The translations under genes and the position numbers were made by a program. 64,000 nt of DNA from Candidatus Omnitrophota bacterium (GTDB taxonomy: Bacteria; Omnitrophota; Gorgyraeia; Aquiviventales; Aquiviventaceae), in the NCBI GenBank assembly GCA_023247215.1, contig JAHFGX010000001.1, forward strand, positions 36,880 to 100,879, given 5' to 3'. Below, in pieces: positions 6,396-50,993 of this stretch. The first letter of the stretch is position 1, and every line of letters starts with the position of its first letter. The notes beneath the pieces are model-generated. The model was not told the DNA's origin and made no database searches. It saw nothing but the letters and a program-made list of their open reading frames with translations.

Positions 6396-6397
6396 GC

Positions 6398-26756: not shown

Positions 26757-26769
26757 GAGCGCACGATGG

Positions 26770-31664: not shown

Positions 31665-33367
31665 CGCGGATCCTCGGCATCAACACCGGCTTCGCCCATG
31701 ACCCCGCGGCAGCGCTGATCAGCGACGGCAAGATTGCGCTCGCGGTGGAAGAGGAACGTTTGGATCGCGTCAAGTTCGGCAAGGGGTTCCCCCACCGAGC
31801 GATCGAGGCCTGCTTGAAGCACGAGGGCCTCTCGCTCTCCGATCTGGACCGCGTGGGGTTCAATTTCCAGCCGTGGAAGATGTTCGCCACCGATCTGGCG
31901 CTCAATGCCCGCTGGCTGTTTCGCCGCCGCGCCTCCACCTACGCGGCGTATCATCTCGGGGCCTCCCTGCATCCGCTGCTGTTCCACCTGAAGGAGGCGG
32001 AATGGTTCAAGCGGCGGACCGGCGGCGCGCTGCGCGTCCAATTCCTGGACCATCACCTCTGCCACGCGGCCAGCGCCTTTTACGTGTCGCCCTTCGACGA
32101 GGCGGCGATCCTCACGCTCGACCAGCGGGGGGAATCGGTCTCAGCCACGATGAGCGTGGGGCAGGGCACGGCGATCCGGCGGCTCGGGACGGTGCGCCTG
32201 CCGGATTCGCTGGGGATGCTCTACCTGAGCGTCACCTTGCATCTCGGGTTCCACGTCGGCGACGAATATAAGGTGATGGGGCTCGCCCCCTACGGCACGC
32301 CGGCCTATCGCGACGTCTTCACCGACCTGCTGCAGCAGAACAGGCACGGCGCGTTCCGGCTCAACCCGTCCTATTTCGATTACCTCGGCGCCGAGCGCTG
32401 CTTCTCAAACAAGTTCTATACGGCCCTTGGCCCCCGGCGGCAGCCGGGCGAGCCGATCGAACAGCGTCACATGGATCTGGCCTGCAGTCTTCAGGCGCGG
32501 TTGACGGACGTCGTCTTGAAGATGACCGAGCGGTTGCATGCGCGGACGAACCTGCCCAACCTGTGCCTGGCCGGCGGGGTGGCCTTCAACAGCGTGATGA
32601 GCGGCGCGCTGCTGCGGCACTCGCCCTTCAAACAACTGTACATCCAGCCGGCTGCAGGCGACGCCGGCACCGCGCTCGGCGCGGCGCTGATCATCGCGCA
32701 CGGCCAATTGGGCCAGCCCCGAGGCATGGTGATGGAGCACGCCTTCCTCGGCCCGGCGTTCAGCGAGGAGGAGATCCAGGCGGCGTTGGCGGCCTGCAAA
32801 GTGGCGTATGAGCGGCCGGCCTCGATTGCCCGCGCCGCCGCCGAGCTGCTGGCCCAGGGGCAGGTGGTCGGCTGGTTCCAGGGTCGGATGGAGTTCGGCC
32901 CGCGCGCGCTGGGCGCCCGGAGCATCCTGGCGGATCCGCGATCCGAGGGCATGAAAGACCGCGTCAACCAGTGCGTCAAGCACCGCGAAGGGTTCCGTCC
33001 CTTCGCGCCGTCGGTCTTGGAAGAGCGCGCGGGAGACTATTTCGAGTATGCCGGCGCGTCGCCGTTCATGCTCTTCGTCTATGGGGTGCGTCCGGAGAAG
33101 CGGGCCGTCATCCCGGCCGTCACCCACGTGGACGGCACGGCGCGCGTGCAGACGGTGCGCCGAGCGGACCATCCGCTCTACTGGGAGCTGATCAGCGAAT
33201 TCGAGCGCCTGACCGGCGTCCCCGTCGTCCTGAACACCTCGTTCAACGTGAATGGCGAGCCGATTGTCTGCGCGCCGGTGGACGCCATCCGCTGTTTCTT
33301 CGGCTCCGGCCTCGATGCGCTGGCGCTCGGCCCGTTCCTGATCCGGAAGGCTGCTCATGCTCAGTGA
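31661..33367 (+). CDS. Carbamoyltransferase, NodU/CmcH family (glycan O-carbamoyltransferase)
   Basis: N-terminal ILGINTGFAHDPAAALISDGKIALAVEEERLDRVK (ASKHA-like); HHLCHAASAF and C-terminal YrdC-like region; 568 aa. ATGA overlap. Confidence 0.8.
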   Translation: MTRILGINTGFAHDPAAALISDGKIALAVEEERLDRVKFGKGFPHRAIEACLKHEGLSLSDLDRVGFNFQPWKMFATDLALNARWLFRRRASTYAAYHLGASLHPLLFHLKEAEWFKRRTGGALRVQFLDHHLCHAASAFYVSPFDEAAILTLDQRGESVSATMSVGQGTAIRRLGTVRLPDSLGMLYLSVTLHLGFHVGDEYKVMGLAPYGTPAYRDVFTDLLQQNRHGAFRLNPSYFDYLGAERCFSNKFYTALGPRRQPGEPIEQRHMDLACSLQARLTDVVLKMTERLHARTNLPNLCLAGGVAFNSVMSGALLRHSPFKQLYIQPAAGDAGTALGAALIIAHGQLGQPRGMVMEHAFLGPAFSEEEIQAALAACKVAYERPASIARAAAELLAQGQVVGWFQGRMEFGPRALGARSILADPRSEGMKDRVNQCVKHREGFRPFAPSVLEERAGDYFEYAGASPFMLFVYGVRPEKRAVIPAVTHVDGTARVQTVRRADHPLYWELISEFERLTGVPVVLNTSFNVNGEPIVCAPVDAIRCFFGSGLDALALGPFLIRKAAHAQ

Positions 33368-34394
33368 GGTCCGGCGGTGGTCGGCCGCGCGGCTGCGCGG
33401 CGCCGTGGCCCGAACATTGCTGGCCACCGGGGCCGAGGCCAGGGGCCGCCGCCGCCAGGGCGCGCGCTTGCGGATCCTGATGTATCACGGGGTGGTGGCG
33501 CGCCGGACCGGACCGGGTCGCTGCGGAAATTTGTTTGTGGACCAGAAGGCCTTTGCCCGGCACGCGCGTTCGCTCGCGCGGGATTTTTGCGTGGTATCGC
33601 TGGAGCAGGTCGCGGAGTCCGTGCAGGCGGGGCGGCCGTTTCCGGACCGGGCGGTGTGGATCACGTTTGACGACGGCTACCGCAACGTGGTGACAACGGC
33701 GCTGCCCGTCCTCCAGGCGCTCCGGCTGCCGGCGACGGTGTTTGTCTTGCCGGGGCTGATGGACGCCGGCGAGGGACTATGGTTCGACGCGCTGCGCGTC
33801 CTGCTCGTGGACGGCGTGGAAGCGTCTGAGGACGTGGGGCATGGTCTGACGCTGGGCCGACCCTCGGCCGATCCGGAACGCGCCTGGACCGAGGCGGTCC
33901 GGCGCATCCTTCGGTTGGACCCACGGTTGCAGCGCGAGATGGCGGCGCAGATTCTCGCCCGGGGCCGGTGCGAGCAGTGGCTGCCGCGTCATCCAGAGTT
34001 CGCGCTGGCCGGGTGGGATGAATGGCGCCGCGCCTGTTCGGACGGACTCATCTCCGTGGGGTCCCACGGGATGCGCCATGAGACGCTGGCCGGGTTATCC
34101 AGGGAGGCGTGCATGGAGGAATGGCAGCGCTCGAAATCGCGCATCGAGGACGCGCTGGGCCGGACGTGCCTCGCAGCCGCCTATCCCTACGGCGCGCTCG
34201 ACGCGTCGGCGGCGGAGGCGGCTCGCCAGGCCGGCTATGCGTGCGCGGTCACCACGGACGAGGGCCTCAATGAGGCGCAACACGATCCCATGCGCCTTCG
34301 GCGCACGATGATCGGTGACGGCGGGGACGTGGCGTTGTTCCGCGCACGCGCGTCCGGGGCGTGGGACCTCGCGCGGCCGAGGGGGAGCCGATGA
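33357..34394 (+). CDS. Polysaccharide deacetylase (NodB homology domain, CE4)
   Basis: WITFDDGYRN (TFDDG Asp-Asp metal motif); His motifs SHGMRHE. Confidence 0.75.
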   Translation: MLSEVRRWSAARLRGAVARTLLATGAEARGRRRQGARLRILMYHGVVARRTGPGRCGNLFVDQKAFARHARSLARDFCVVSLEQVAESVQAGRPFPDRAVWITFDDGYRNVVTTALPVLQALRLPATVFVLPGLMDAGEGLWFDALRVLLVDGVEASEDVGHGLTLGRPSADPERAWTEAVRRILRLDPRLQREMAAQILARGRCEQWLPRHPEFALAGWDEWRRACSDGLISVGSHGMRHETLAGLSREACMEEWQRSKSRIEDALGRTCLAAAYPYGALDASAAEAARQAGYACAVTTDEGLNEAQHDPMRLRRTMIGDGGDVALFRARASGAWDLARPRGSR

Positions 34395-36235
34395 TCACAG
34401 GCCGCGACATCGTGTGCATTTCTTCCATTGACTGGGACTTCATCTGGCAAGGGCATCAGGAGATCATGACGACCTTCGCCTGGGAGGGGAACCGGGTGCT
34501 CTTTATCGAGAACACCGGCGTGCGCCGTCCCGGCCTGCGCGACCTGCCGCGGCTGCGGCACCGCCTTCAGGCGTGGCGGCAGAGCACGAAAGGATTCCGG
34601 CAGGTGCAGGAGAACCTGTTCGTCTACGCCCCGGTGATCCTGCCGTTTCCGTATTCGCGCGTGGCGCGGTGGATCAATCGCCGGCTGCTGATACGGGCGC
34701 TGGAGCGCTGGATGCGCACCATGGGATTCAGCCGCCCCATCGTCTGGACGTTCCTGCCCACGCCGTTGGCGCGGGATCTCCTTCGTGAGCTTCGCCCCGC
34801 CGCGACCGTGTATTACTGCATTGATGATCTGGCGTCGAGCTCGCGCCAGGCGCGGCGCATCGTCCACAGCGAGCGGCAGGTGTTCCGGGAAGCGGACCTG
34901 GTCTTCGTGACCTCGGAGCAGCTACGGCAGCGGGCGCTGAAGAGCACCAACCAGGTCTACCTGTTTCCCTTCGGCGTCAACGTGGAAACGTTCGAGCGCG
35001 CGCGGCTGCACCCGAACGACCTGCCCGATGAGCTGACGCGCCTGCCGCACCCGATCATTGGCTACGTGGGCGGGTTGCACCAATGGTTGGACCAGGACCT
35101 GCTCTCGGGCGTCATCGAGCGCATGCCGGAGGCCTCCTTCGTCTTCATCGGCCCCGTGCAGACCGACGTGTCGCGGCTGACGCACTGGCCCAACGTGCAG
35201 GTGCTGAGCGCGCGCCCGCATGCGGAGCTGCCGCGCTACCTCCTTGCCTGCGACGTCGCGCTGATCCCGTACCGGTTGAGCGAGTACACCGCGAACGTCT
35301 ACCCCACGAAATTGAACGAGTACCTGGCCATGGGGCTGCCCGTGGTCTCGACCCCGCTGCCGGAAATGGAGCGCTTCAACGCCCGGCATCCCGGCGTCGT
35401 GCGGGTGGCGCAGGGCGCGGAGGACTTCGCGCAGGCGGTCCGAGAGGCGGCGGCCGATCCGAAGGCCGGCCCGGTTGTCGAGCGCCGCATCGATGTTTCC
35501 CGCACGAACAGTTGGCGCACGCGAATTACCCAGATGTCCCGGCTGATTGAGGACGTCCTGCGCCGGCGCCAGGCCACCAACCAGTGGGAGCTGGTGCTGC
35601 GCCGTGTCTACCAGGGAGCTCGCGGCCGAACCGCCCGGTTGTTGTTCGGCGCGCTGGCGGTCTACCTGCTCTGTTTCCAGAGCCCGTTGATTTGGTGGGT
35701 GGCCGAGCCGCTGCGGGTGCATGCTCCGCCGCGGGCGGCGGACGCCATCGTCGTCTTCGCCGGCGGCGTGGGCGAGTCCGGCAAAGCCGGGGGCGGCTAC
35801 CAGGAGCGCGTCAAGCGCGCGGTGGACCTGTATCGCGCCGGGTACGCTCCCCGCATCGTCTTTTCTTCCGGCTACAGGTTCGTATTCCAGGAGGCGGAGG
35901 TGATGCGGGAGTTGGCGGTGGCCCAAGGGGTACCCGCCTCTGCGATAGTGTTGGAAACGAGCGCGCGGAACACCCATGAAAATGTGATCCTCTCTGCCGA
36001 GCTATTGCGCCGAATCGGGGGGGTGCGGTCGGTCCTGTTGGTGAGCTCGCCGTACCACATGCGCCGCGCGGTCGGGGTATGGAAGCGGCTGGTGCCGGGC
36101 GTGGAGACGATCCCTGAGCCGGTGCCGGAAAGCCAGTTTTACGCCCACAGCCGGGGCGCCAGCCTGGAGCAGATCCGCGGCATTTTCCACGAATACCTCA
36201 GCCTCCTCTATTATTGGGGGAAGGGATGGATGTGA
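34391..36235 (+). CDS. Fusion protein: GT4-like glycosyltransferase (N-terminal, about 400 aa) plus DUF218/YdcF(ElyC/SanA)-like domain (C-terminal)
   Basis: N-terminal part with VYPTKLNEYLAMGLPVVST (GT-B C-lobe). C-terminal AIVVFAGGVGESG ... SSGYRFV ... ETSARNTHENV matches the DUF218 signature. ATGA overlap. Confidence 0.6.
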   Translation: MITGRDIVCISSIDWDFIWQGHQEIMTTFAWEGNRVLFIENTGVRRPGLRDLPRLRHRLQAWRQSTKGFRQVQENLFVYAPVILPFPYSRVARWINRRLLIRALERWMRTMGFSRPIVWTFLPTPLARDLLRELRPAATVYYCIDDLASSSRQARRIVHSERQVFREADLVFVTSEQLRQRALKSTNQVYLFPFGVNVETFERARLHPNDLPDELTRLPHPIIGYVGGLHQWLDQDLLSGVIERMPEASFVFIGPVQTDVSRLTHWPNVQVLSARPHAELPRYLLACDVALIPYRLSEYTANVYPTKLNEYLAMGLPVVSTPLPEMERFNARHPGVVRVAQGAEDFAQAVREAAADPKAGPVVERRIDVSRTNSWRTRITQMSRLIEDVLRRRQATNQWELVLRRVYQGARGRTARLLFGALAVYLLCFQSPLIWWVAEPLRVHAPPRAADAIVVFAGGVGESGKAGGGYQERVKRAVDLYRAGYAPRIVFSSGYRFVFQEAEVMRELAVAQGVPASAIVLETSARNTHENVILSAELLRRIGGVRSVLLVSSPYHMRRAVGVWKRLVPGVETIPEPVPESQFYAHSRGASLEQIRGIFHEYLSLLYYWGKGWM

Positions 36236-37497
36236 CGCGCCGTCTGCGTGGCGTCTGGGGGGCGTGCGCCGTCGCGCTGCTGGCGCGCCTGTCGGCCTTC
36301 GTCCTCCTCGGCCGGTTCGCCCACCCGGATGTCTGCGAGAGCGAGATCATCGCCCTGAACCTGCTGCAGGGCAAAGGATTTATCTATCATTTCCTGGGGA
36401 CCGACTATCGCTCCTACATGGAGCCGCTCTATCCCGGTTTGTGCGCCGGGGTGTATGCTGTCACCGGGCACAGCGCCGTCGCCCTGGGGCTGGTGCAGAT
36501 CGCGCTGGGGACGGCGCTGGTGTGGCTCGTGTTCGCGTGCGCCCGTCGCCTGGCGTCTGATCGCGCCGCCGTCGTCGCCGCGTGGTTGACGGCCCTGCAC
36601 CCGGGGCTAATCCTCTACACGACGAAGTTTCACCCGCTGATCCTGGACACCGTGTGCATCACGCTGGTGGTGGCTGGTTGCCTGTGGTACGGCGAGCGGC
36701 CCCGCTGGCGATCCGTGGTGCGGCTCGGCGGGCTCCTGGGGTTGTGCGTGCTGACCCGTCCGACGATCGTGGCGGCCGTGCCGCTGATCGGTTGGTGGGT
36801 CTGGCGACGCTCCCCGCCCCGGCCCGGCCTTCGGGTCGGAGAGTTCCTGGTCATCGTGGGATGCGCCGCGGCGGTCGTGGCACCGTGGGTCTGGCGCAAC
36901 TACCACGTGCACCACCGGCTCATCTTGACGCGCAGCGGCACGAGCATGGTGTTCTGGATCGGCAACAACCCGTACCGGTTCACCGGGTCCGCCCTGACCC
37001 CGGAGGGAGACCCGGTCCTGATCAGCGTGGCGCCACCGGCAGTTCGCACGCAACTGCTGTCGCTGGATGAGCTGGGCCAGCAGGATCTCTTGCTGGCTCA
37101 GGCCCGGCAGTTCGTCCGGGAGCACCCGTGGGAATTCCTCAGGCGATGGGCGGTGAAGTGGGTCTATTTTTGGTGGTTCACCCCCCAAGCCGGATTGTTG
37201 TATCCGCCGCGGTGGATCCGAGCCTATCATGCCGTTTCCGCCCCGCTGCTCATCCTGCTCCTCATTGGGGCGTGGACCCTCTGGCATCCACAGCCCGGGA
37301 TGTGGAGGGATCGGCAAGCCGGGTGGCTGCTGGCGGCGCTGTGCGCCGCCATCGCGCTGCTTCAGAGCCTGTTCTATATTGAAGGGCGGCACCGCCTCGC
37401 CATCGAGCCGCTCCTCCTCATCTTCGTCAGCCAAGGGATTTGGCGGGTGTGGTCGGGTCAACGAGGTGCGGCCTCATGCCGGACGGGCACGGAATGA
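36226..37497 (+). CDS. Polytopic membrane glycosyltransferase, GT-C fold (ArnT/PMT, GT39/83-like)
   Basis: About 11 hydrophobic helices in 424 aa. It is immediately followed by a polyprenol-phosphate sugar synthase gene, the arnC-arnT-like arrangement. Confidence 0.5.
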   Translation: MDVTRRLRGVWGACAVALLARLSAFVLLGRFAHPDVCESEIIALNLLQGKGFIYHFLGTDYRSYMEPLYPGLCAGVYAVTGHSAVALGLVQIALGTALVWLVFACARRLASDRAAVVAAWLTALHPGLILYTTKFHPLILDTVCITLVVAGCLWYGERPRWRSVVRLGGLLGLCVLTRPTIVAAVPLIGWWVWRRSPPRPGLRVGEFLVIVGCAAAVVAPWVWRNYHVHHRLILTRSGTSMVFWIGNNPYRFTGSALTPEGDPVLISVAPPAVRTQLLSLDELGQQDLLLAQARQFVREHPWEFLRRWAVKWVYFWWFTPQAGLLYPPRWIRAYHAVSAPLLILLLIGAWTLWHPQPGMWRDRQAGWLLAALCAAIALLQSLFYIEGRHRLAIEPLLLIFVSQGIWRVWSGQRGAASCRTGTE

Positions 37498-38288
37498 GCG
37501 GCGACGTGGGACGCAAGCGGATCGGGGTGCTCGTCGTCGCCTACAATGCGTTCAACACGCTGGCGGCCACCCTGGACCGCGTGCCGCCGGCCCTGATGGA
37601 AAAAATCGAGGAGGTCTTTGTCTTTGACGACCATTCTGCGGATGACACCTATCGGGCCGCCCTCAAGTACAAGCAGCGCCGGGGACTCACGAAGCTGAGC
37701 GTGTTTTCCAACGAGCGGAACTTGCGCTACGGCGGCAATCAGAAGCGCGGGTACCGGTACGCCATCGAGCGCGGGTTCGACATCGTGGTGCTGCTGCACG
37801 GGGACGGACAATACGCGCCGGAGGTGATGCAGCAGCTCCTTGATCCGCTCGAGCAGGGCGAGGCGGAGTTGGTGATGGGCTCGCGGATGATGCCCGGCTG
37901 CCGGCCCCTGCGCGGGGGGATGCCGCTCTACAAGTTCGTCGGCAACAAAATCCTGACGACGTGGGAGAACCTGCTGCTGGGTACGCGGCTGCAGGAGTTT
38001 CACTCCGGCTATCGCGCCTACGACTGCCATGCGCTGGCGCGGGTGCCGTTCGAGCGGTGCTCGAATGAGTGGCATTTCGACACCGAAATCATCATCCAGT
38101 TCCTGGCCAAACAGTTTCGCGTCGTCGAGCGGCCGATCCCCACGTACTACGGGGATGAGATCTGCTACGTCAACGGGCTGGCGTATGCCTATCGCTGCAC
38201 CGAAGCGGTGGTGAAGTACCGCCTCCATCAGGCCGGTCTCCGGAACTGGAGCGTATTCGACGTGGAGGGACGCGGTGACGCCGTATAA
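37494..38288 (+). CDS. GT2 polyprenol-phosphate sugar synthase (ArnC/GtrB/DPM1-like)
   Basis: VLVVAYNAFNTL, FVFDDHSAD, LLHGDGQY, and ED/DxD motifs. ATGA overlap with the preceding GT-C gene. Confidence 0.75.
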   Translation: MSGDVGRKRIGVLVVAYNAFNTLAATLDRVPPALMEKIEEVFVFDDHSADDTYRAALKYKQRRGLTKLSVFSNERNLRYGGNQKRGYRYAIERGFDIVVLLHGDGQYAPEVMQQLLDPLEQGEAELVMGSRMMPGCRPLRGGMPLYKFVGNKILTTWENLLLGTRLQEFHSGYRAYDCHALARVPFERCSNEWHFDTEIIIQFLAKQFRVVERPIPTYYGDEICYVNGLAYAYRCTEAVVKYRLHQAGLRNWSVFDVEGRGDAV

Positions 38289-38961
38289 ATTCAAGAGCGG
38301 CCCGTGGAGCAGCCATGGGCAGATCCTGCGGCTGGCGGACGCCTGGCCGCGCACGTTCCGGATCTTGGAGGTGGGCACGGCCGAGGGCTACCTCGGCCTG
38401 GCGTTGCGCGCGCGGGGATTTGCGCAGGTGGTGGGCATCGAGCGGGATGCGCAGCTCGCCGCGGAGGCGCAGCCGCACTACGCGCGCCACGTCGCGGCGG
38501 ACGCGGAGCGCGACGGGACGCTGGAAGCGTTGGGGACGTTTGACGCGGTGATCCTGGCCGATGTTCTCGAGCACTTACGGGAGCCGCAGGTCCATCTGCA
38601 GCGCGTCGGCCGGGTCGTGCGCTCCGGCGGGCACGTCGTCGTCTCGCTGCCCAATGCGGTCCACTGGACGATGCGCTTGATGGTCCTGTTCGGCCGTTTC
38701 GACTATGCGCCATGCGGCCTCATGGACGCGGGCCACGTGCGGTTTTTCACCCGCCGGACGGCGACGCAGCTCCTTGAGGCTTCGGGGTTTCGCGTCCGCC
38801 GCGTGTTGGTGACCCCGCTGCCATTCGAGCGGGCGGCCGGCGGACGGCTGCCGGGGTGGGTCGTGCGCCCGCTGGAGTGGGGGTACTACGCCGTCAGCCG
38901 CTGCTGGAGCACGCTGCTGGCCTACCAGTTCATCTTCCTGGCGCAGCGCCAGGATTCCTGA
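38275..38961 (+). CDS. Class I SAM-dependent methyltransferase
   Basis: Motif I ILEVGTAEGYLG; VGIERD; motif III VRSGGHVVVS. GTG start with 14-bp overlap. Confidence 0.65.
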   Translation: MTPYKFKSGPWSSHGQILRLADAWPRTFRILEVGTAEGYLGLALRARGFAQVVGIERDAQLAAEAQPHYARHVAADAERDGTLEALGTFDAVILADVLEHLREPQVHLQRVGRVVRSGGHVVVSLPNAVHWTMRLMVLFGRFDYAPCGLMDAGHVRFFTRRTATQLLEASGFRVRRVLVTPLPFERAAGGRLPGWVVRPLEWGYYAVSRCWSTLLAYQFIFLAQRQDS

Positions 38962-38968
38962 CGAGCTC

Positions 38969-40150
38969 ATGCCCTCCAGACGCCTGACGCCTCACCCGGC
39001 TCTTCGCGCGTGTCTGCCTGTGACGGTGCTTGCGGTCACCGCCGTGAAGCTCGCGCTGGCCGCCCGCTGGGGATGGACGCAGGACATTCCCGGTACGCAA
39101 ATTGAAGCTGAGGGGTTCCTGGCCTCCTGGCGCGGAGCCGGCGGACACCCCACCGTGTTCCCGTTGGGATACTACGCGCTGTCGTGCGGCGCCCTGCTGC
39201 TGTCGCAGTGGACCGGCGCGCCCTTTGCATGTTGGATCAAGGTCCCTGCCATCCTGTCCGATGCGGTCATCGCGTTGGTCCTCCGGAAGGTGCGGGGCGG
39301 GGGAGACCGGGCCGCCGCGCTCTATCTGCTCAATCCGGTGACGATGCTGCTTTCCGTGTACCACGGTCAGTTGCACACGGCGGCCACCGCGGCGGCGGTC
39401 ATGGCGCTGTGGGCGGCGGAGCGCGGGCAGTGGGGATGGACGGGCGTGGCCCTCGGCGCGGCCGTCAGCATCCGCCAGCACTTCGGGTTGTTGTTGCTGC
39501 CGCTGCTCTGCCGGCGGCAGGGGCGCGTCCGTCTGGCGGCGGCGTTCGCCGCGACGGTGGCGCTGACGGTCTTACCGCTGTCGGCCCGTTACCCGGCGGG
39601 CCGTTTGGCCAGCCCGGTCTGGGTGTTTGGAGCCTGGGGATACGGCATGTTGTTGCTGCAAGGGCCGCGGTTGTTGGCGCAGCTGGGCGGTCCGGATGTG
39701 ACCGCGATGGCGGCTGGACTGATCCAAACGCTGCAGGCACACGGCCCCAAGCTCTATTGGCTGTGGGCCGCCGCGTTTGCCGCATGGACCTGGCGCGCAC
39801 GCGCACGCCTGCAGACCGCTTCCTCCTCCTGGCGCGCCGCGCTGCTGTGGTTGGTGGGGCTGTACGCCATGAGCCCCGGCTTCGGCGTGCAATGGCTGGT
39901 GTGGGCGTTGCCGTGTTGGCTGATCGTGGATCGCCCGCAGGCGTGGCGCTACAGCCTGCTGGCCGGGCTCTTCTTAGCCGGCTCCTATTGGCAATGGACC
40001 CTGCCAGGCGCATACGGAGTGGACTCCATTACCGCGAACCTGGGCCGGCTCCGCCCGGCGGACCTGCTGGGCGTGTGCGCCGTCGGGATCATCGGGTTGG
40101 CGACGTGGTGGATGAGCGTGCGCACCGCCTGGCGGCTGCTGCGCTCATGA
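38969..40150 (+). CDS. Polytopic membrane protein, putative GT-C-like (DUF2029 / GT87-type) glycosyltransferase
   Basis: About 10-11 hydrophobic segments across 393 aa with Ala/Leu/Trp-rich composition. No soluble domain. Location in a glycan locus. Confidence 0.35.
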   Translation: MPSRRLTPHPALRACLPVTVLAVTAVKLALAARWGWTQDIPGTQIEAEGFLASWRGAGGHPTVFPLGYYALSCGALLLSQWTGAPFACWIKVPAILSDAVIALVLRKVRGGGDRAAALYLLNPVTMLLSVYHGQLHTAATAAAVMALWAAERGQWGWTGVALGAAVSIRQHFGLLLLPLLCRRQGRVRLAAAFAATVALTVLPLSARYPAGRLASPVWVFGAWGYGMLLLQGPRLLAQLGGPDVTAMAAGLIQTLQAHGPKLYWLWAAAFAAWTWRARARLQTASSSWRAALLWLVGLYAMSPGFGVQWLVWALPCWLIVDRPQAWRYSLLAGLFLAGSYWQWTLPGAYGVDSITANLGRLRPADLLGVCAVGIIGLATWWMSVRTAWRLLRS

Positions 40151-41406
40151 CGCTGAAGCCCGGGACGAAGATCGCGGCGGATCTTCCCATGAAGATCGTG
40201 CGGGTGGTGACGCGCATGAACATCGGCGGGCCGGCGCGCCACGTCGCCATCCTGACCAATGAGCTGGATCCCGCCCAGTTTCGCACCTGCCTCGTCATGG
40301 GCACGGCGGACCCGGGGGAAGGCGAGCTCAGTGGATTGGTCGAAGGGCGCCATGCCCGCGTCATCCGGCTGCCCGGCTTGCGGCGATCGCTGCGGCCGTG
40401 GCAGGACCTCCTGACGCTGGTCCGGCTGCTGAAGATTGTCTGGCGGGAGCGCCCCCAGGTGCTGCACACGCATATGGCGAAGGCCGGGGTCTTGGGCCGG
40501 GTCGCGGCGTGGGCGTATAACCATCTGGGACCGGGGCGGGCGCCGGGCCGGCGCGTCACCGTGCTGCACACGTTTCACGGCCACGTGCTGGAGGGGTACT
40601 TTTCCCCCGCGTCCAACCGGTTCTTTATCGGGGTCGAGCGGCGGCTGGCCCGCATCAGCGACCGGCTCATCGCCGTCAGCCCGGCGGTGCGGCACGAGTT
40701 GCTGGCGCTGGGCATCGGCCGGGAAGCCCAGTGGCGGGTGGTTCCGCTGGGCTTGCACCTCGAAGCGTTTGCGGCCCTGGCCTTGCCCGTGCCGGGCGAG
40801 ACGGTCCGGTTCGGCCTCGTCGGGCGGCTGGTGCCCATCAAAGACCCGGAGCTGTTTGTGGAGGGGTTGCGGCGGGCGTGGGCTCAGCGGCCCAGCGCGA
40901 GTGAAGGGGTGGTGGTGGGGGACGGACCGCTGCGCGGCGCGGTGGAAGCGCAGATTGCGGCGCAGGGACTGGCGGACGTGGTGCGGTGCATCGGCTGGCA
41001 GCATGAGCTGCCGGCCGTGTATGCCGGGCTGGACGTCGTCTGCGTGACCTCGAGGAATGAGGGCACCCCGGTGGCGTTGATCGAAGCGATGGCGGCGGGC
41101 CGGGCCGTGATCGGCACCGCCGTCGGCGGCGTGCCGGATCTACTGGAGGACGCGCCGGGCCCGATCCCCAGCGGCGGGGTCCGCGTCACCGGCCGCGGCG
41201 TGCTGGTGAACGCCGGGGATGCAGACGGCGTCGCCGGCGCCATGCTGCTGCTGGCGTCGGATCCGGCCTTGCGGGAGCGGTTGGGACGCGCGGCCCGGGC
41301 GCACGTGCTGGAACGCTACAGCCACGAGCGGCTGGTGCGGGACCTGGCGGGGCTCTACCGGGAGCTGCTCGGCGACGATGGTTCTGCGCCGCGCTGCATG
41401 GTATAA
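40147..41406 (+). CDS. Glycosyltransferase family 4
   Basis: RMNIGGPARHV N-lobe motif; RNEGTPVALIEAMAAGRAVIGT E-x7-E region. ATGA overlap; an alternative start is M at 40189. Confidence 0.8.
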   Translation: MTLKPGTKIAADLPMKIVRVVTRMNIGGPARHVAILTNELDPAQFRTCLVMGTADPGEGELSGLVEGRHARVIRLPGLRRSLRPWQDLLTLVRLLKIVWRERPQVLHTHMAKAGVLGRVAAWAYNHLGPGRAPGRRVTVLHTFHGHVLEGYFSPASNRFFIGVERRLARISDRLIAVSPAVRHELLALGIGREAQWRVVPLGLHLEAFAALALPVPGETVRFGLVGRLVPIKDPELFVEGLRRAWAQRPSASEGVVVGDGPLRGAVEAQIAAQGLADVVRCIGWQHELPAVYAGLDVVCVTSRNEGTPVALIEAMAAGRAVIGTAVGGVPDLLEDAPGPIPSGGVRVTGRGVLVNAGDADGVAGAMLLLASDPALRERLGRAARAHVLERYSHERLVRDLAGLYRELLGDDGSAPRCMV

Positions 41407-41446
41407 TGACGCGCTATTTTTCGGCGGGAATTGCGGAGCTATCGTG

Positions 41447-42496
41447 ATGCCGGATTCACCACGGTCGGAGCCAATGCGCGTCTTAGTCACCGGCGGGGCG
41501 GGGTTCATCGGATCCCATTTAGCCGAGGTGTTGGTCAAGCGCGGGGACGCGGTGACGGTCCTGGACAACTTCTCCACCGGCCGCTATGCCAACATCGCGC
41601 CGCTGGACGGCCATCCGCGCTTTCAATTGGTCACCGGATCCATCCTGAACGAGTTCCTCGTGGATAAGCTGGTCGAACGCTCGGATGTGGTGTTCCACCT
41701 GGCGGCGGCGGTCGGGGTGGAGCTGATCATCAAGAAGCCGCTCGAGTCGCTGATGACGAACATCCGGGGCAGCGAGGTCGTGCTGGAAATGGCACACCGC
41801 TACCGCAAGAAAGTCCTCGTCGCCTCCACCTCGGAAATTTACGGGAAGAACATCAACGGCCCGCTGCGGGAAGATATGGATCGAGTGCTGGGCTCCCCCC
41901 TGAAAAGCCGCTGGAGCTACTCCACCTCGAAGGCGGTCGACGAAATCCTGGCGTACGTCTATTGGAAGGAAAAAGGCGTTCCGACGATCATCGTCCGGCT
42001 GTTCAACACGGTGGGCCCCCGCCAAAGCGGGGCCTATGGCATGGTCATCCCGCGGTTTGTCGGCCAAGCGCTGCGGGGCGAGCCGCTGGCCGTCCATGGC
42101 ACGGGGAAGCAGACGCGCTGTTTCCTGCATGTGGCGGATGCCGTCACTGCGTTGGTTCGGCTGATCGAACATCCCAAGGCGGTCGGAGACGTCTTCAACA
42201 TCGGCAGCCAGGAGGAGGTCACGATTGAGGATGTGGCGCGGCGCGTCATCCGGCTGACCGGCAGCAGCTCCCGCATCGAGCCGATCCCGTATGAGCAGGC
42301 CTACGAGGAAGGATTTGAAGACATGCAGCGCCGCGTGCCGGATATCGGCAAGATCGCGGCGCTGATCGGATTCCGTCCCTCCATGGCCTTGGACCAGATC
42401 ATCGCCAGCGTCGTGGACAGCGTGCGGTCTTCCGTCGTCGGGGGGATGACGAGTCCTCCGGCGCTCGCAGCCCAGAGCGTTCCGCGCGCGTCGTAG
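41447..42496 (+). CDS. NAD-dependent epimerase/dehydratase (UDP-sugar 4-epimerase / UDP-glucuronate decarboxylase-like)
   Basis: VLVTGGAGFIGSHL; STSEIYG; YSTSK (YxxxK); about 349 aa. Confidence 0.8.
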   Translation: MPDSPRSEPMRVLVTGGAGFIGSHLAEVLVKRGDAVTVLDNFSTGRYANIAPLDGHPRFQLVTGSILNEFLVDKLVERSDVVFHLAAAVGVELIIKKPLESLMTNIRGSEVVLEMAHRYRKKVLVASTSEIYGKNINGPLREDMDRVLGSPLKSRWSYSTSKAVDEILAYVYWKEKGVPTIIVRLFNTVGPRQSGAYGMVIPRFVGQALRGEPLAVHGTGKQTRCFLHVADAVTALVRLIEHPKAVGDVFNIGSQEEVTIEDVARRVIRLTGSSSRIEPIPYEQAYEEGFEDMQRRVPDIGKIAALIGFRPSMALDQIIASVVDSVRSSVVGGMTSPPALAAQSVPRAS

Positions 42497-44320
42497 TTGC
42501 GGATGCTAGCCGGCCTCTTGTCGCCCCTCCATCTCGCCGTGGTGGCTGGTGTCACCGCGTTCGCGATCACTTTCTGCGCCACCCCGATCATCCGCATCCT
42601 GGCCGTCCGCCGCGGGTGGAGCACTCGTTCGGCCGAAGACCGATGGGGCCGCCGGGTCGTCGCGCGCTTCGGCGGGATCGCGATCTTCGCCGGCTACATG
42701 GCGGCCGCCTTCCTCTGGGTGCCGCTGGAGCCTCGGGTCGTTGGGATCCTGATCGGCCTGGCCCTCGTCGTGGTGGTCGGCATCGCGGATGATATGCGAC
42801 GCATGCCGCCCTATACCAAACTGCTCTTGCAATTGCTGGTCGGCTGCGCCGTGGTGGGTCTGGGGGTCCGGATTCATGTCGAGACCTGGACCTGGGAGTC
42901 GGTGCCGCTGTCGGTCCTCTGGTTCGTGCTGGTGATGAACGCGTTCAATCTCTTGGACAACATGGACGGGTTGGCGGCCGGGGTCGCCGCCATCGCCGCG
43001 GGGTTCTGCGCGTTCCACGCGATCGTCGCGCAGCAGTGGACGCTCGTCGCGTTGGCGGCGATCCTGGGGGGCGCCTGCGTCGGGTTCCTGCAGTTCAATT
43101 TTCCTCCGGCGAAAATCTACATGGGGGACACCGGCAGCCATTTTCTGGGATTGGGGTTGGCCACCTTAATGCCGCTCAGCAGTTGGCATTATCCGGCCCC
43201 GCTCATCGGCATCCTGGCCGTCCCGGTCCTGGTGCTGGCGGTTCCGATTTTCGACACCTGCTTCGTGACGATCCAGCGCTTGCTACATCGCCAGCACCCG
43301 TTTGTGGGCGGCACCGACCATGTCTCCCACCGGCTGGCCATCCTGGGGCTCAGCACGCGGCAAACCGTGATGGCGCTCTACGGCATCAGCATCAGCGTCG
43401 GGCTGGTCAGCGTCCTGTCCGCTTCGATGAGGCCGCTCAGCGCCTTGGCCCTCTGGTGCGTGGTGGTGACGGTGCTCATCGCGTTCGGCCGGTACTTGGG
43501 CCGGGTGAATGTCTATCAACTGGAATCGGTCGCGACTGCCGCCGGGCCGATGCCCGCCCAGCCGGTCACGCGGATCGAAACGCTCCTGCTGCACAAGCGC
43601 CGCCTGCTCGAGGTGCTGATCGACTTCATCATCATCTGCGGGGCGTACCTCAGTGCCCACCTGCTGCGGTTCGATGGAGTCTTAAGCGCCCACATCCAGG
43701 GATTGCTGATCCGCTCGCTTCCCATTATCCTCGTCATCAAGATCGCCTGTTTTTTGGCCTCCGGCCTGTACCGGCGCGAGTGGCACCGCCCCGACCTGTC
43801 CGACGTGGTGGTGGTCCTCAAAGCGGTGACGTTTGGGGCGACACTCTCCTCCATCGCCCTGCTGTACCTCTGGCGGTTTGAGGGCTATTCGCGCGCCGTC
43901 CTACTGATCGATTGGATGATCTGCCTCCTCGCGGTGGGCGGGTCCCGGATGGCGGAACGGCTGTTTGACGAATGGATCGGCTCGGCGTCGGCGCAGGGGA
44001 CCCCGGTGCTCATCGTCGGGGCAGGGCAGACCGGGGAGCGCGTGCTGCGCTACCTGAAGGACATCCGCCACTCCGGCCGGCGGGTGGCGGCGTTTCTCGA
44101 CGACGATCCGCGCAAGATCGGGCTGCAGATCCACGGCGTCCGGGTGGTAGGGACGCGCCGGCGTCTGCCGGAGCTCTTGGCGGAACTTGAGATCGGCGAA
44201 GTGCTCATTGCCATCACGGACCCTCCGGCAGAGCTCCTGCGCGACGTCCAGGAATCGTGCCGTGCGCGCGGCGTCCGGTGGAATATCGTGGCGGCCGTCA
44301 TGACCGGATCGGTCGGTTGA
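42497..44320 (+). CDS. Initiating phosphoglycosyltransferase of MraY/WecA (polytopic) type fused to a C-terminal TM plus CoA_binding_3-like Rossmann domain
   Basis: NAFNLLDNMDGLAAG and IYMGDTGSHFLG (Mg/UMP-binding motifs of the WecA/MraY family) in residues 1-330. Residues 370-607 have further TM helices and PVLIVGAGQTGERVLRYL, as in the N-terminal modules of WbaP/PglF/WbpM. TTG or ATG start at 42497/42503. Confidence 0.7.
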   Translation: MRMLAGLLSPLHLAVVAGVTAFAITFCATPIIRILAVRRGWSTRSAEDRWGRRVVARFGGIAIFAGYMAAAFLWVPLEPRVVGILIGLALVVVVGIADDMRRMPPYTKLLLQLLVGCAVVGLGVRIHVETWTWESVPLSVLWFVLVMNAFNLLDNMDGLAAGVAAIAAGFCAFHAIVAQQWTLVALAAILGGACVGFLQFNFPPAKIYMGDTGSHFLGLGLATLMPLSSWHYPAPLIGILAVPVLVLAVPIFDTCFVTIQRLLHRQHPFVGGTDHVSHRLAILGLSTRQTVMALYGISISVGLVSVLSASMRPLSALALWCVVVTVLIAFGRYLGRVNVYQLESVATAAGPMPAQPVTRIETLLLHKRRLLEVLIDFIIICGAYLSAHLLRFDGVLSAHIQGLLIRSLPIILVIKIACFLASGLYRREWHRPDLSDVVVVLKAVTFGATLSSIALLYLWRFEGYSRAVLLIDWMICLLAVGGSRMAERLFDEWIGSASAQGTPVLIVGAGQTGERVLRYLKDIRHSGRRVAAFLDDDPRKIGLQIHGVRVVGTRRRLPELLAELEIGEVLIAITDPPAELLRDVQESCRARGVRWNIVAAVMTGSVG

Positions 44321-50202: not shown

Positions 50203-50993
50203 CCAAGAACGAGTCCGCGCGCCTGACCGACTGCATCCGCAGCGTGGCGTGGGCCGGCGAGGTCCTGGTGATTGACGACAATTCCACCGACGACACCGTC
50301 CGCCTGGCGGAATCGTTGGGCGCGCGGGTGCTGCGCCGAACGATGGAGAACGAAGGCCGCCACCGCAACTGGGCCTACGCGCAGGCGCGGCATGAATGGG
50401 TCCTCAGCCTCGACGCCGATGAGCGGGTCACCCCGGAGCTAGCACGGGAGATCCAGGCGCTGTTTCGCGGGACCCCGCCGCAGGACACGTACGCGATCCC
50501 CCGGCGCAATTTCCTGGGCGACCGGTGGATCCGCCACGGCGGCTGGTATCCCAGCGCGCAGATGAAGCTCTTCAAATGGTCGGTATTCCGCTGGGAAGAA
50601 ACCACTGTGCATCCGCGCGCGTTGTCCGACCGCCCCTGGGGCACGCTGCGGCACGACCTGCTCCACTATTCCTACCGCGATCGCGAGGATTTCCTGAAGA
50701 AGCAGGACCGCCACACCACGCTCGAGGCGCAGAAGTGGATCGCCGACGGCCGACGCGTCTCCTGGGGCAAAGCGTTTTGGCGCACCGTGGACCGGTTCGT
50801 CCGCGGCGCGATCCTCAAGCAGGGCTATCGCGACGGGGCGCTCGGCTGGTGGCTGGCGTGGCGGGGCGGGGCGTACCAGTGGATCAGCTACTCGAAATAT
50901 CTCACGATCAAGCGCCAGGCCGGCGCAGCATCCGGCGGCGCTGGACCCACAGCGTCCCAAACAGCGCCAGAGCGAACCACGGCAGGATCATAA
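50166..50993 (+). CDS. Glycosyltransferase family 2 (WaaE/KdtX-like subfamily)
   Basis: LSVVILTKNE, VLVIDDNSTDDT, LSLDADE. It has a low-complexity C-terminal tail; the last 86 bp overlap the convergent minus-strand gene. Confidence 0.75.
   Translation: MDRPVPLSVVILTKNESARLTDCIRSVAWAGEVLVIDDNSTDDTVRLAESLGARVLRRTMENEGRHRNWAYAQARHEWVLSLDADERVTPELAREIQALFRGTPPQDTYAIPRRNFLGDRWIRHGGWYPSAQMKLFKWSVFRWEETTVHPRALSDRPWGTLRHDLLHYSYRDREDFLKKQDRHTTLEAQKWIADGRRVSWGKAFWRTVDRFVRGAILKQGYRDGALGWWLAWRGGAYQWISYSKYLTIKRQAGAASGGAGPTASQTAPERTTAGS

Follow-up and report, generated by a model that had tools for sequence, protein, structure and literature searches.

Two genes in the window, that is, the whole stretch of 64,000 nucleotides that was analysed, encode conserved protein architectures for which no describing paper was found in a literature search, and which are assembled from already known component families. 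In ORF-A, a GT-B glycosyltransferase is joined through a single predicted transmembrane (TM) helix to a DUF218 domain, and in ORF-B a polytopic phosphoglycosyltransferase (PGT) is followed by a predicted four-helix bundle and a Rossmann-like domain. Both fusions are real, common rather than rare, and preserved across hundreds of environmental genomes. With a probability of roughly 0.6, the two proteins act in one Wzx/Wzy-type lipid-linked pathway in the roles proposed below. Both combinations thus offer testable hints on how bacteria control the synthesis of their surface sugars.

Table 1. Positions, in the window, of ORF-A, ORF-B, their domains and the neighboring genes
Feature	Coordinates	Strand	Basis and remarks
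CE4 polysaccharide deacetylase	33357..34394	+	Pfam Polysacc_deac_1 E 5.1e-24; stop overlaps ORF-A start
ORF-A	34391..36235	+	614 aa, uninterrupted ORF; GT-B glycosyltransferase, one TM helix, DUF218 domain
ORF-A residues 1-395, GT-B (GT4-like, TuaH-like) domain, cytoplasmic	34391..35575	+	Pfam, NCBIfam, Foldseek
ORF-A residues 417-437, single predicted TM helix	35639..35701	+	hydropathy, flanking charge
ORF-A residues 451-603, DUF218 (SanA/ElyC/YdcF) domain	35741..36199	+	Pfam PF02698; predicted periplasmic
GT-C glycosyltransferase (PMT_2, ArnT-like fold family)	36214..37497	+	Pfam PMT_2 E 4.4e-11
GT2 enzyme, polyprenyl-phosphate sugar synthase-like	37440..38288	+	Pfam Glycos_transf_2
SAM-dependent methyltransferase	38275..38961	+	Pfam Methyltransf_23 E 1.9e-20
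Probable GT-C membrane glycosyltransferase	38969..40150	+	weak Pfam GT87 E 2.2e-05, 24.8 bits, just under gathering 25
GT4 glycosyltransferase (start approximate)	40150..41406	+	Pfam GT4 domains; in conserved GT4-SDR-ORF-B triad
Soluble SDR nucleotide-sugar dehydratase/epimerase	41219..42496	+	Pfam Epimerase E 1.2e-53; conserved part from ~41474; directly upstream of ORF-B
ORF-B	42503..44320	+	605 aa from ATG 42503 (607 aa from TTG 42497); polytopic PGT, four-helix bundle, Rossmann DUF
ORF-B residues 1-336, PNPT (WecA/MraY-type) domain, ~11 TM helices	42503..43510	+	PF00953, Foldseek, catalytic residues
ORF-B linker	43511..43582	+	low model confidence; conserved patches RVNVY and T..ET.LLHKRR
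ORF-B residues 361-495, four-TM-helix bundle	43583..43987	+	AlphaFold2, hydropathy
ORF-B residues 498-603, Rossmann-like DUF (PF13727 CoA_binding_3)	43994..44311	+	Pfam; invariant GxGxxG + DD; cytoplasmic
Wzy_C-family membrane protein (O-antigen ligase/polymerase-like)	44257..45576	+	Pfam Wzy_C E 1.1e-21; directly downstream of ORF-B

The window represents a glycan biosynthesis island of very large size, encoded almost wholly on one strand in the genome (~67% G+C) of an uncultured Omnitrophota-type bacterium, and also contains Wzx-like flippase, NeuB, cytidylyltransferase and GT9 heptosyltransferase-like genes. In NCBIfam, the GT2 enzyme matched AglJ, Dol-P-hexose transferase and PpgS, and the SDR matched LegB-like, RmlB-like and UXS-like families, all below cut-off, while the Wzy_C protein gave weak RfaL-like and PEP_O_lig matches. 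A search for a hydrophobic segment in the CE4 deacetylase found none. In four loci (L004, L009, L015 and L017), ORF-A, zero or one gene, GT4, SDR and ORF-B follow each other in series, and in L006 and L012 ORF-A is also located upstream of ORF-B, at a greater distance. Omnitrophota share this conserved core of ORF-A, GT4, SDR and ORF-B.

Translation of the ORF-A frame (34361/34391 to 36235) showed no internal stop. The start codon ATG 34391 and the stop codon of the preceding deacetylase gene overlap (ATGA), and the Shine-Dalgarno-like run GAGGGGGAG lies ahead of the start. In the first domain, Glyco_trans_1_4 is placed at residues 221-356 (E 1.3e-12, 48.6 bits; Pfam gathering 27), and Glycos_transf_1 is also found (E 1.3e-07, 31.7 bits; gathering 26.4). 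In NCBIfam, TuaH matches best (E 2.5e-32), although the score of 112 is far under its equivalog cut-off of 550. The AlphaFold2 model has a mean pLDDT of 89.6 and its top Foldseek matches are MshA (E 8.9e-17), PimA, BshA, WaaG and PglA. ORF-A resembles TuaH-like and GT4-type enzymes in its GT-B fold, GT4 enzymes being the top structural matches, but differs from them by the C-terminal TM helix and the DUF218 domain.

DUF218 covers residues 451-603 of ORF-A (PF02698, E 1.6e-29, 103 bits; gathering 27.6). Residues T528 and H556 align with T125 and H149 of SanA and are invariant in 62 homologues. E601, also invariant in the homologues, probably corresponds to SanA E182, a pairing which was made by motif only and was not recovered by the automatic alignment. 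SanA needs this triad for its function, and the triad is active on the periplasmic side (PMC12176290). ORF-A is not an ElyC equivalog, since it reaches 26 bits where the NCBIfam cut-off is 205. SanA and ElyC are reported to be conserved mostly in Enterobacterales (PMC12176290). SanA, ElyC, YgjQ and YdcF are stand-alone proteins of ~240-260 aa, whereas in ORF-A the anchor is preceded by a cytoplasmic glycosyltransferase of 400 residues.

The frame of ORF-B is open throughout from 42497 to 44320. The preliminary description had placed a WecA-family PGT and a CoA_binding_3-like domain in this frame; their fusion holds, but the start, given there as TTG 42497, is most likely ATG 42503, because the gene upstream stops at TAG 42494-42496 and a database protein with 100% identity (P0001) has a length of 605 aa. 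Glycos_transf_4 (PF00953) is located at residues 82-225 (E 1.6e-31, 109.9 bits; gathering 27), and the structural matches in Foldseek include MraY (E 2.6e-09) and DPAGT1. Residues D90, D91, D156, D159, D217, R265 and H279 of WecA align to ORF-B residues which are invariant in 62 homologues, and the motifs NAFNLLDNMDG and MGDTGS, noted earlier, are both present. ORF-B is nevertheless not an equivalog of WecA, for which it scores 79 bits where NCBIfam requires 326, nor of MraY. Residues 1-336 have in common with WecA, WbpL and MraY the fold, ~11 TM helices and all tested WecA catalytic residues, and an initiating enzyme is also in keeping with the location of ORF-B in a Wzx/Wzy-type cluster. On the contrary, these enzymes end soon after their last TM helix (367 aa in E. 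coli WecA), whereas ORF-B extends ~270 residues further.

This extension includes a region of pLDDT <50 (residues 339-370) and a bundle of four modelled helices (361-389, 396-419, 432-457 and 464-495; pLDDT ~50-80). Strands and helices then alternate through residues 500-601, and CoA_binding_3 (PF13727) matches residues 421-589 (E 1.8e-09, 38.3 bits; gathering 25). Residues G506, G508, G511, D533 and D534 of the Rossmann domain are invariant (62 sequences, 54-62% identity to the query). The sum of 11 and 4 helices places this domain in the cytoplasm. In NCBIfam, residues 374-602 match TIGR03025 (E 7.5e-23) over its positions 1-225, which correspond to the N-terminal half of the large monotopic PGTs. 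In Foldseek, the next match after all PNPT entries is WbaP (8t53; probability 1.0, 237 aligned columns), as a local match with a poor global superposition (TM-score 0.15/0.22, rmsd 13 Å).

The profile of the module also matches 3nkl, a 141-aa chain named UDP-D-quinovosamine 4-dehydrogenase (E 2.9e-07). On the N-termini of PglF-like dehydratases it scored 149 bits (Leptospira) and 117 bits (B. thuringiensis), and 66 bits on WbgZ of S. sonnei; the scores on large PGTs were 66, 32 and 11 bits (10.7 for E. coli WcaJ). By these scores, from six reference proteins, the module seems closer to the N-terminal parts of dehydratases of the PglF/WbpM type than to the corresponding parts of WbaP/WcaJ. Its bundle and Rossmann DUF align end to end with the first 230-240 residues of PglF/WbpM/WbgZ/CapD-type enzymes, which give the module its best scores (tblastn E 8e-17). 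In these dehydratases, the module is N-terminal to Polysacc_synt_2, whereas in ORF-B it is C-terminal and Polysacc_synt_2 is absent. WbaP, WcaJ, CpsE and EpsZ share with ORF-B the accessory module, the overall reaction with UMP as product and the pathway step, but have an unrelated catalytic domain (monotopic Bac_transf instead of the polytopic PF00953) and the reversed domain order.

The Pfam assignments made earlier for both proteins (PF02698, PF13727 and PF00953), including the two C-terminal regions, all hold above gathering scores, and translation revealed no stop between the halves of either ORF. The view that the ORF-B module is of a type normally found N-terminally in WbaP-type PGTs and PglF/WbpM dehydratases was borne out by Pfam, TIGR03025, Foldseek and the profiles. 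Similarly, the view that neither architecture is characterised agrees with the literature search, and polytopic PGTs are entered as 'PGT only' in a 2024 table (PMC10942596 Table 1). On the other hand, the coupling of lipid-carrier handling to glycosyl transfer, which the preliminary description had attributed to both fusions, goes beyond what was observed, and the role of PF13727 in WbaP is nucleotide sensing (PMC10942596) rather than the handling of a lipid carrier.

Judging from its family, ORF-B would be the initiating enzyme, with a UDP-sugar as the donor of a HexNAc-type sugar-1-phosphate, undecaprenyl phosphate as the acceptor and UMP as the released product. The bundle after TM11 and the Rossmann domain together are the accessory module that stands before the catalytic domain in PglF/WbpM-type dehydratases and in large monotopic PGTs of the WbaP/WcaJ type. 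The DUF of WbaP is stabilised by UMP, UDP and UTP and forms the dimer interface, and UMP inhibits the enzyme with an IC50 of 4.1 uM; uridine-nucleotide binding and dimerisation in WbaP are the only biochemistry of PF13727 (PMC10942596). By analogy, the ORF-B module may bind uridine nucleotides and/or stabilise an oligomer, and would in this way restrain the first committed step, at which lipid carrier is consumed. Docking of the soluble SDR dehydratase/epimerase, the gene of which directly precedes ORF-B, may be a further role. ORF-B most likely arose when a PGT gene became fused to the 5′ portion of a neighboring gene for a WbpM-like dehydratase; in Shigella sonnei, a PGT gene is followed by a WbpM-like dehydratase gene.

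ORF-A would be a bitopic protein, the cytoplasmic GT-B domain of which adds a sugar to the lipid-linked unit. Its DUF218 domain, with the SanA-type Thr/His(/Glu), is probably enzymatic and would act on the same glycan or lipid-linked form after flipping. The link of DUF218 to undecaprenyl phosphate derives from the genetics of ElyC and SanA and not from a known reaction (PMC3879167, PMC12176290). Functional coupling in both fusions is thus suggested by analogy, with WbaP for UMP sensing and dimerisation, and with SanA for a periplasmic catalytic triad.

The fusions may instead be passive, each added domain working independently of the enzyme to which it is joined. The ORF-B module would then be an inert remnant of a PGT-WbpM gene fusion or a simple membrane or oligomerisation scaffold, and the DUF218 of ORF-A would be co-expressed with a glycosyltransferase of the same pathway but not coupled to it allosterically or mechanistically. 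Neither a dehydratase nor a monotopic transferase domain follows the module, and a PglF-type dehydratase (Polysacc_synt_2) domain was found within 10 kb of ORF-B in 0/80 loci; a dehydratase-like module without its dehydratase fits the pattern of a truncated fusion. The dimerisation β-hairpin of WbaP is absent, since the protein ends right after the Rossmann fold, as it is in EpsZ (PMC12802240), MraY and other PNPTs form dimers without any such module (PMC10942596 Table 1), and the neighbors of ORF-A differ from genome to genome. Still, the module keeps the invariant GxGxxG and DD nucleotide-binding signature together with many more invariant residues, and homologues from several phyla still have it at identities as low as 33%, which is not expected of an inert remnant. 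Besides the invariant Thr and His of DUF218, the combination of glycosyltransferase and DUF218 persists in 8/8 distant ORF-A representatives tested (604-614 aa; 27-46% identity). Passive fusions are therefore considered unlikely, if worth keeping as a tentative reading.

A scaffold rather than a sensor is a distinctly doubtful alternative for ORF-B. The module would mainly bring the upstream SDR to the membrane, perhaps together with the next GT4, so that a modified UDP-sugar is channelled to the transferase, and would do in trans what the PglF/WbpM module does in cis. Its closest similarity is indeed to the module of membrane-anchored dehydratases, an SDR homologue is directly upstream of ORF-B in 37/70 loci, and GT4 and SDR both precede it in 34/65. 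This leaves about half of the loci without the adjacent SDR gene; moreover, the SDR belongs to the Epimerase/GDP_Man_Dehyd type and not to the Polysacc_synt_2 type which is fused in PglF.

The periplasmic action proposed for ORF-A depends on the orientation of its helix. Residues 417-437 are the only strongly hydrophobic stretch of the protein and lie exactly between the two domains. The flanking charge is markedly and consistently biased, with a mean of 6.0 K+R per 15 residues before the helix against 1.8 after it (n=62 homologues). This predicts an N-in/C-out helix and hence a DUF218 domain in the periplasm, as in SanA and ElyC. SanA, ElyC and YgjQ have the same layout, with an N-in TM helix directly before DUF218, and SanA is periplasmic (PMC12176290). 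All these features stand against a soluble or peripheral two-enzyme fusion, in which the helix would be membrane-associated or buried and a cytoplasmic DUF218 would act on a nucleotide sugar or small molecule. For this highly improbable arrangement speak YdcF, a DUF218 protein of the cytoplasm with reported binding of S-adenosylmethionine (PMC12176290), the structure of which (3ca8) is weakly matched by the DUF218 profile of ORF-A, and the modest hydropathy of the helix in some homologues. Its minimum mean value among the homologues is 1.03, and a simple hydropathy threshold missed the helix in four longer, triple-fusion homologues.

The survey of homologues, all of which come from metagenomes or MAGs, showed both architectures to be widespread. 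With clusters counted at 90% identity, ORF-A is found full-length in at least 120 clusters (60-65% identity) and ORF-B in at least 120 clusters near the query. Among a further 120 matches of the ORF-B family, for the most part with Acidobacteria/Blastocatellia labels, 116 include both Pfam domains. In 80/80 genome loci, from different studies, the ORF-B homologue is a single stop-to-stop ORF of 592-698 aa, with one tblastn alignment over residues ~1-600. These loci are labelled Omnitrophota, Planctomycetia, Nitrospirae, Nitrospinota, Acidobacteriota, Desulfobacteraceae and Miltoncostaea. The term 'unusual', which had been applied to both fusions, is accordingly an overstatement.

A fusion known from one MAG alone is frequently an artefact, but the possibility that a mistake in sequencing or assembly (a missed stop or a frameshift) has merged two neighboring genes in each case is effectively refuted for the family, as both frames are open, the linker regions of both contain invariant residues and each fusion recurs as one ORF in many independent assemblies, which makes a frameshift very unlikely. 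At the 50% identity level, at least 22 representatives of ~604-642 aa carry a C-terminal DUF218. Some ORF-A homologues have in addition an N-terminal CE4 domain, of a subtype different from that of the adjoining deacetylase.

Both ORFs of the window that join a glycosylation enzyme to an accessory domain are genuine, conserved fusions and consist wholly of known parts. ORF-A encodes a GT4-like glycosyltransferase of the GT-B fold, one transmembrane (TM) helix and a DUF218 domain. ORF-B encodes a polytopic WecA/MraY-type phosphoglycosyl transferase (PGT), followed by a module (residues ~361-605) of a four-helix bundle and a Rossmann CoA_binding_3 domain (PF13727). In detail, translation gave uninterrupted frames at 34361/34391-36235 and 42497-44320, and no stop separates the halves of either protein. 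The four domain assignments of the preliminary description proved correct, with Pfam matches above the gathering scores, and so did the motifs that it quoted. Its extent of ORF-B held as a single frame but not in the start: the TTG at 42497 gives way to the ATG at 42503, which is the likelier because the TAG of the upstream gene ends at 42496 and the identical database protein has 605 aa. The deacetylase gene upstream of ORF-A ends in a stop that shares bases with the ORF-A start codon at 34391 (ATGA), and the Shine-Dalgarno-like GAGGGGGAG lies ahead of that ATG.

In a search space of 5.8 billion proteins, at least 120 clusters of homologues per protein were found among the matches listed, with 55-65% identity over nearly the full length and both Pfam domains in all of them. 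When one genome of each GTDB species was scanned, relatives of ORF-B turned up at 33-62% identity, and in all 80 loci kept the homologue is covered by one tblastn alignment over residues ~1-600 and lies in one stop-to-stop ORF of 592-698 aa holding both halves. The titles of these loci name Omnitrophota, Planctomycetia, Nitrospirae, Nitrospinota, Desulfobacteraceae and Miltoncostaea, as well as many Acidobacteriota (Pyrinomonadaceae, Blastocatellia and Chloracidobacterium). An exhaustive search that used only the TM helix and DUF218 of ORF-A as query yielded 22 or more representatives at 50% identity (~604-642 aa, DUF218 at ~410-610), and eight out of eight distant representatives tested (27-46% identity) have Glyco_trans_1_4 and DUF218 at the same positions. 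Since the same single-ORF architectures recur across many clusters and loci, the fusions are not artefacts. Judged from the sequences collected, both architectures are old and common, and their earlier designation as unusual is overstated. In databases, sequences of these kinds already number in the hundreds and bear automatic names, for instance 'YdcF family protein' or, among ORF-B-type entries, 'UDP-GlcNAc:undecaprenyl-phosphate GlcNAc-1-phosphate transferase'.

All members found so far belong to uncultured bacteria. A cultured, tractable host was sought through locus L059, which is titled 'Heliomicrobium sp.' (Firmicutes), and the nearest relatives listed for the ORF-B homologue of this locus (60-95% identity) all come from metagenome-assembled genomes. 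A search seeded with this homologue gave at least 120 further clusters of the ORF-B family; both domains are annotated in 116 of the 120 listed, and the named ones are all Acidobacteria/Blastocatellia. As the relatives carry these labels, the L059 contig is likely mis-binned, and its title is probably a binning error.

The N-terminal domain of ORF-A is, by its Pfam matches and predicted fold, a GT4-like GT-B glycosyltransferase. The C-terminal half of the GT-B domain matches Glyco_trans_1_4 (E 1.3e-12, 48.6 bits vs a gathering score of 27) and Glycos_transf_1 (E 1.3e-07, 31.7 bits vs 26.4). The structural model (mean pLDDT 89.6) shows a two-Rossmann GT-B fold to residue ~395, long helices and an alpha/beta domain at 452-611, and Foldseek retrieved the retaining GT4 enzymes MshA (E 8.9e-17), PimA, BshA, WaaG and PglA. 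The best NCBIfam match is TuaH (NF047676), of which ORF-A is not an equivalog (112 bits vs a cut-off of 550). A single-sequence search of the PDB with ORF-A gave no matches, and a profile search gave a GT-B enzyme and a marginal match to YdcF only.

DUF218 (PF02698) is matched at residues 451-603 over profile positions 1-132 of 133 (E 1.6e-29, 103 bits vs a gathering score of 27.6). The protein has a single hydrophobic segment, at residues ~417-437, and among 62 homologues the mean number of K+R is 6.0 in the 15 residues before the helix vs 1.8 in the 15 after it. Because a GT-B enzyme using nucleotide sugars must be cytoplasmic, the single TM helix and this charge bias place DUF218 in the periplasm by prediction. 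The domain is thus predicted to be of the membrane-anchored SanA/ElyC subtype with an N-in anchor, but ORF-A is not an ElyC equivalog (NF007794, 26.1 bits vs a cut-off of 205). A TM anchor with a periplasmic DUF218 has been reported for SanA, ElyC and YgjQ, and SanA, which acts in the periplasm, needs T125, H149 and E182 for its function (PMC12176290). In the profile alignment of the 62 homologues, T125 and H149 correspond to T528 and H556 of ORF-A, both invariant. E182 can be related to the invariant E601 through a motif match only (IREF vs FHEY), the two having been left unpaired by the automatic alignment.

Some relatives of ORF-A are triple fusions, with a CE4 deacetylase, a methyltransferase or a second GT domain ahead of the GT-TM-DUF218 core. 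The CE4 domain is found in proteins of 930-947 aa (P0124, P0127, P0132, P0154, P0163, P0186, P0207, P0211 and P0234) and the methyltransferase in the 921-aa P0157. The 995-aa relative P0259 has two GT domains. The fused deacetylase was considered as being of the same type as the one encoded in the window; both are CE4, but in the three sequences inspected the motifs clearly differ.

The catalytic half of ORF-B is a member of the polytopic PGT superfamily (PNPT), as judged by Pfam, the catalytic residues and a model that agrees with the polytopic MraY-like fold of 10-11 TM helices, which all fit. Glycos_transf_4 (PF00953) is matched at residues 82-225 (E 1.6e-31, 109.9 bits vs a gathering score of 27). 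D90, D91, D156, D159, D217, R265 and H279 of WecA, which we take from WecA mutagenesis to be the catalytic and Mg2+/substrate-binding residues, all pair with identical residues of ORF-B, invariant in 62 homologues. The AlphaFold2 model (mean pLDDT 74) begins with eleven long helices that extend to residue 334. A linker of low confidence (339-370), four further long helices (361-495) and a Rossmann fold of alternating strands and helices (500-601) follow, directly after which the protein ends. In the Foldseek search of the PDB, MraY (E 2.6e-09, TM-score to the target up to 0.77) and, more weakly, human DPAGT1 ranked on top. Although it shares the superfamily with WecA and MraY, ORF-B is an equivalog of neither (TIGR02380, 79.3 bits vs a cut-off of 326, and TIGR00445, 39.5 bits vs 192, respectively). 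According to the alignment, E. coli WecA ends ~30 residues past TM11, where the linker of ORF-B starts.

The accessory module corresponds to the N-terminal half of large monotopic PGTs, as the preliminary description had proposed: residues 374-602 match positions 1-225 of TIGR03025 (E 7.5e-23, NCBIfam), which is exactly that half. CoA_binding_3 is found at residues 421-589 (E 1.8e-09, 38.3 bits vs a gathering score of 25), with four TM helices at 361-495 preceding the Rossmann part. The latter has the invariant G506-x-G508-x-x-G511 and D533-D534. Counting 11 + 4 helices on the topology which we assume for WecA, the Rossmann domain would be cytoplasmic, as in WbaP. The first Foldseek match outside the PNPT superfamily is WbaP (8t53_A; E 1.2e-03, probability 1.0, 237 columns), with a poor global superposition (TM-score 0.15/0.22, rmsd 13 A). 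In contrast to WbaP, the domain-swapped beta-hairpin after the Rossmann domain is absent from the model, in which ORF-B stops ~10 residues past the last strand. EpsZ likewise lacks the hairpin (PMC12802240).

Although it has their accessory module, ORF-B is, on its domain content, neither a large monotopic PGT (WbaP/WcaJ) nor a PglF/WbpM-type dehydratase. Pfam found no Bac_transf and no Polysacc_synt_2 domain in it, and the NCBIfam models of large PGTs were matched through positions 1-229 only. A split WbpM, with the dehydratase domain as a separate gene after ORF-B, was also considered and dismissed. At E <=1e-20, queries with that domain detected nothing in any of the 80 loci; neither right after ORF-B nor elsewhere within 10 kb is a PglF-type dehydratase domain encoded. 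In the window, the same queries detected the separate SDR gene only.

As regards the relatives of the module, its tblastn matches in plasmid records are mostly annotated as 'nucleoside-diphosphate sugar epimerase/dehydratase' or 'polysaccharide biosynthesis protein' (PglF/WbpM/CapD type), and one among those listed as a large PGT. The module profile scored 149 bits with a PglF-like dehydratase of Leptospira (profile positions 12-242 to residues 7-239), 117 with a CapD-like one of B. thuringiensis and 66 with WbgZ of S. sonnei. Among large PGTs, it scored 66 bits with a Thermomicrobium protein, 32 with a 482-aa protein of locus L075, whose assignment to this type is assumed, and 10.7 with WcaJ of E. 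coli. The family profile of ORF-B also matches PDB 3nkl (E 2.9e-07), a 141-aa chain named UDP-D-quinovosamine 4-dehydrogenase. It is plausible that ORF-B originated from a PGT gene fused with the 5' part of a neighboring WbpM-like dehydratase gene, since wbgZ of S. sonnei is directly 3' of a small PGT gene and, presumably, wbpM follows wbpL in P. aeruginosa. Six reference proteins being a small sample, such an origin should be taken as a lead only.

The window is almost wholly occupied by glycan biosynthesis genes on one strand. These include NeuB and a cytidylyltransferase for nonulosonic acid synthesis, aminotransferases, a Wzx-like flippase, a B12/radical-SAM enzyme, a NodU-like carbamoyltransferase, a CE4 deacetylase, a methyltransferase, a GT2 resembling polyprenyl-phosphate sugar synthases, GT-C enzymes, a Wzy_C protein, two GT9 heptosyltransferase-like genes and several further GTs. 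In other Omnitrophota-type loci the gene order is ORF-A, 0-1 gene, GT4, SDR, ORF-B, Wzy_C, GT9, GT9, and this shared order places ORF-A and ORF-B in one conserved operon core, into which the window has four additional genes inserted between the two. A full-length ORF-A homologue within the 10-kb flanks was found in six loci only, labelled Omnitrophota or 'Planctomycetia', with a partial match at the edge of a further one (L037). A constant partner gene of ORF-A was not found, its neighbors varying across loci (CE4 deacetylase, radical SAM/SPASM, asparagine-synthase-like, PMT_2, methyltransferase and DUF4330 genes). The GT4-SDR-ORF-B series is present in 34 of 65 loci, and among the 70 loci, from all phyla, that have enough flank, 37 carry an SDR gene immediately 5' of ORF-B.

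Neither fusion was described in the literature searched, in agreement with the earlier statement that neither is a characterised architecture; coverage being incomplete, this is absence of evidence only. Polytopic PGTs were tabulated as 'PGT only' in the 2024 WbaP paper, the DUF of WbaP being stabilised by UMP, UDP and UTP and acting as the dimer interface, with UMP inhibiting the enzyme at 4.1 uM; uridine-nucleotide binding and allosteric inhibition by such a module are known for WbaP only (PMC10942596).

What the analysis shows is the domain make-up of the two proteins, their integrity and conservation, their predicted topology, the conserved catalytic residues and the linkage of the genes; the mechanism proposed here is inferred. 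ORF-B would start the pathway by forming Und-PP-sugar and UMP. By analogy with the homologous domain of WbaP, the cytoplasmic Rossmann module of ORF-B probably serves to bind uridine nucleotides and/or to stabilise an oligomer, thereby limiting the first step that consumes the lipid carrier. A serious alternative is that the module is a scaffold for the SDR encoded upstream. In the proposed pathway, ORF-A would add a sugar on the cytoplasmic face, and its periplasmic SanA-like domain would then act on the flipped product; this last step is the weakest of the proposal.

A joint reading of the two families can be offered tentatively, with a probability of about 0.3. The bundle and Rossmann DUF would be a portable, enzyme-independent control unit, carried by three unrelated catalytic folds at the entry of lipid-linked glycan synthesis (monotopic PGTs, SDR dehydratases and polytopic PGTs), which in the ORF-B family senses UMP/UDP-sugar and/or docks the upstream SDR. 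DUF218 proteins such as SanA and ElyC would act as enzymes in the periplasm, every one of them serving the product of a single specific cytoplasmic glycan pathway, and not as general regulators of the lipid carrier. If true, the ORF-B module would be the first known built-in regulatory domain of the PNPT superfamily, and the GT-TM-DUF218 family a Rosetta-stone clue to DUF218 proteins.

The PF13727 module has so far been discussed for monotopic PGTs and PglF-like dehydratases only. That it is conserved on polytopic PGTs too, an enzyme class of separate evolutionary descent, lends support to a response to something shared (such as UMP, UDP-sugars or the membrane site), and these carriers provide a clean comparative test of the shared-signal idea. 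Similarly, a cytoplasmic GT and a periplasmic SanA-like domain in one conserved protein tie DUF218 physically to one glycan pathway, which narrows the search for its substrate. These are two clean, testable hypotheses on poorly understood accessory domains, both widespread, and they bear on the biochemical role of PF13727 and DUF218 and on how scarce undecaprenyl phosphate is rationed among envelope pathways that compete for it. The finding is of limited practical value; all members found so far are from uncultured bacteria, and their function is predicted.

Positions of the two fusion genes and of other features in the window
Feature	Position	Strand	Remark
Asparagine-synthase-like amidotransferase	939-2834	+ run	nonulosonic-acid-type region (939-7780)
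NeuB	4370-5353	+ run	nonulosonic-acid-type region
CMP-sugar cytidylyltransferase	5652-6395	+ run	nonulosonic-acid-type region
Class-III aminotransferase	6392-7780	+ run	nonulosonic-acid-type region
HMGL-like enzyme, HAD hydrolase, 289-aa ORF, ferredoxin/LdpA_C-like Fe-S protein	20227-24463		289-aa ORF without Pfam match
B12-binding radical-SAM enzyme	25032-26756
661-aa ORF	26662-28647		coding-like GC3, no Pfam match
CE4 deacetylase	33357-34394
ORF-A	34391-36235	+	614 aa
PMT_2 and weak GT87-like ORF	36214-40150		GT-C enzymes
SDR	41219-42496		conserved part from ~41474
ORF-B	42503-44320	+	605 aa
GT87	50908-52161	-	GT-C enzyme, clear match
GDP-mannose-dehydratase-like SDR	53599-54741
Sugar C-methyltransferase	54983-56410		Methyltransf_13/14 domains

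The cumulative GC skew climbs steadily over the window, nearly all genes are on the plus strand and the G+C content is 63-70%; the clear GT87 is the only convincing minus-strand gene. The three GT-C enzymes together with the GT2 alongside them suggest periplasmic glycosylation from Und-P-sugar donors beside the Wzx/Wzy route. The C-methyltransferase and the GDP-mannose-dehydratase-like SDR suggest that the product contains branched or deoxy sugars. The genes from the HMGL-like enzyme to the Fe-S protein are unusual in a glycan island and could serve to make a substituent other than a sugar. In two ORF-B loci, L015 and L017, an amidotransferase of the same type as that of the nonulosonic-acid-type region immediately precedes the ORF-A homologue. 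Directly downstream of the ORF-A homologue, a DUF4330 protein is encoded in L015 (6911-7420) and L012 (3277-4533), and L017 has a similar 168-aa ORF downstream; the window has no DUF4330 counterpart there.
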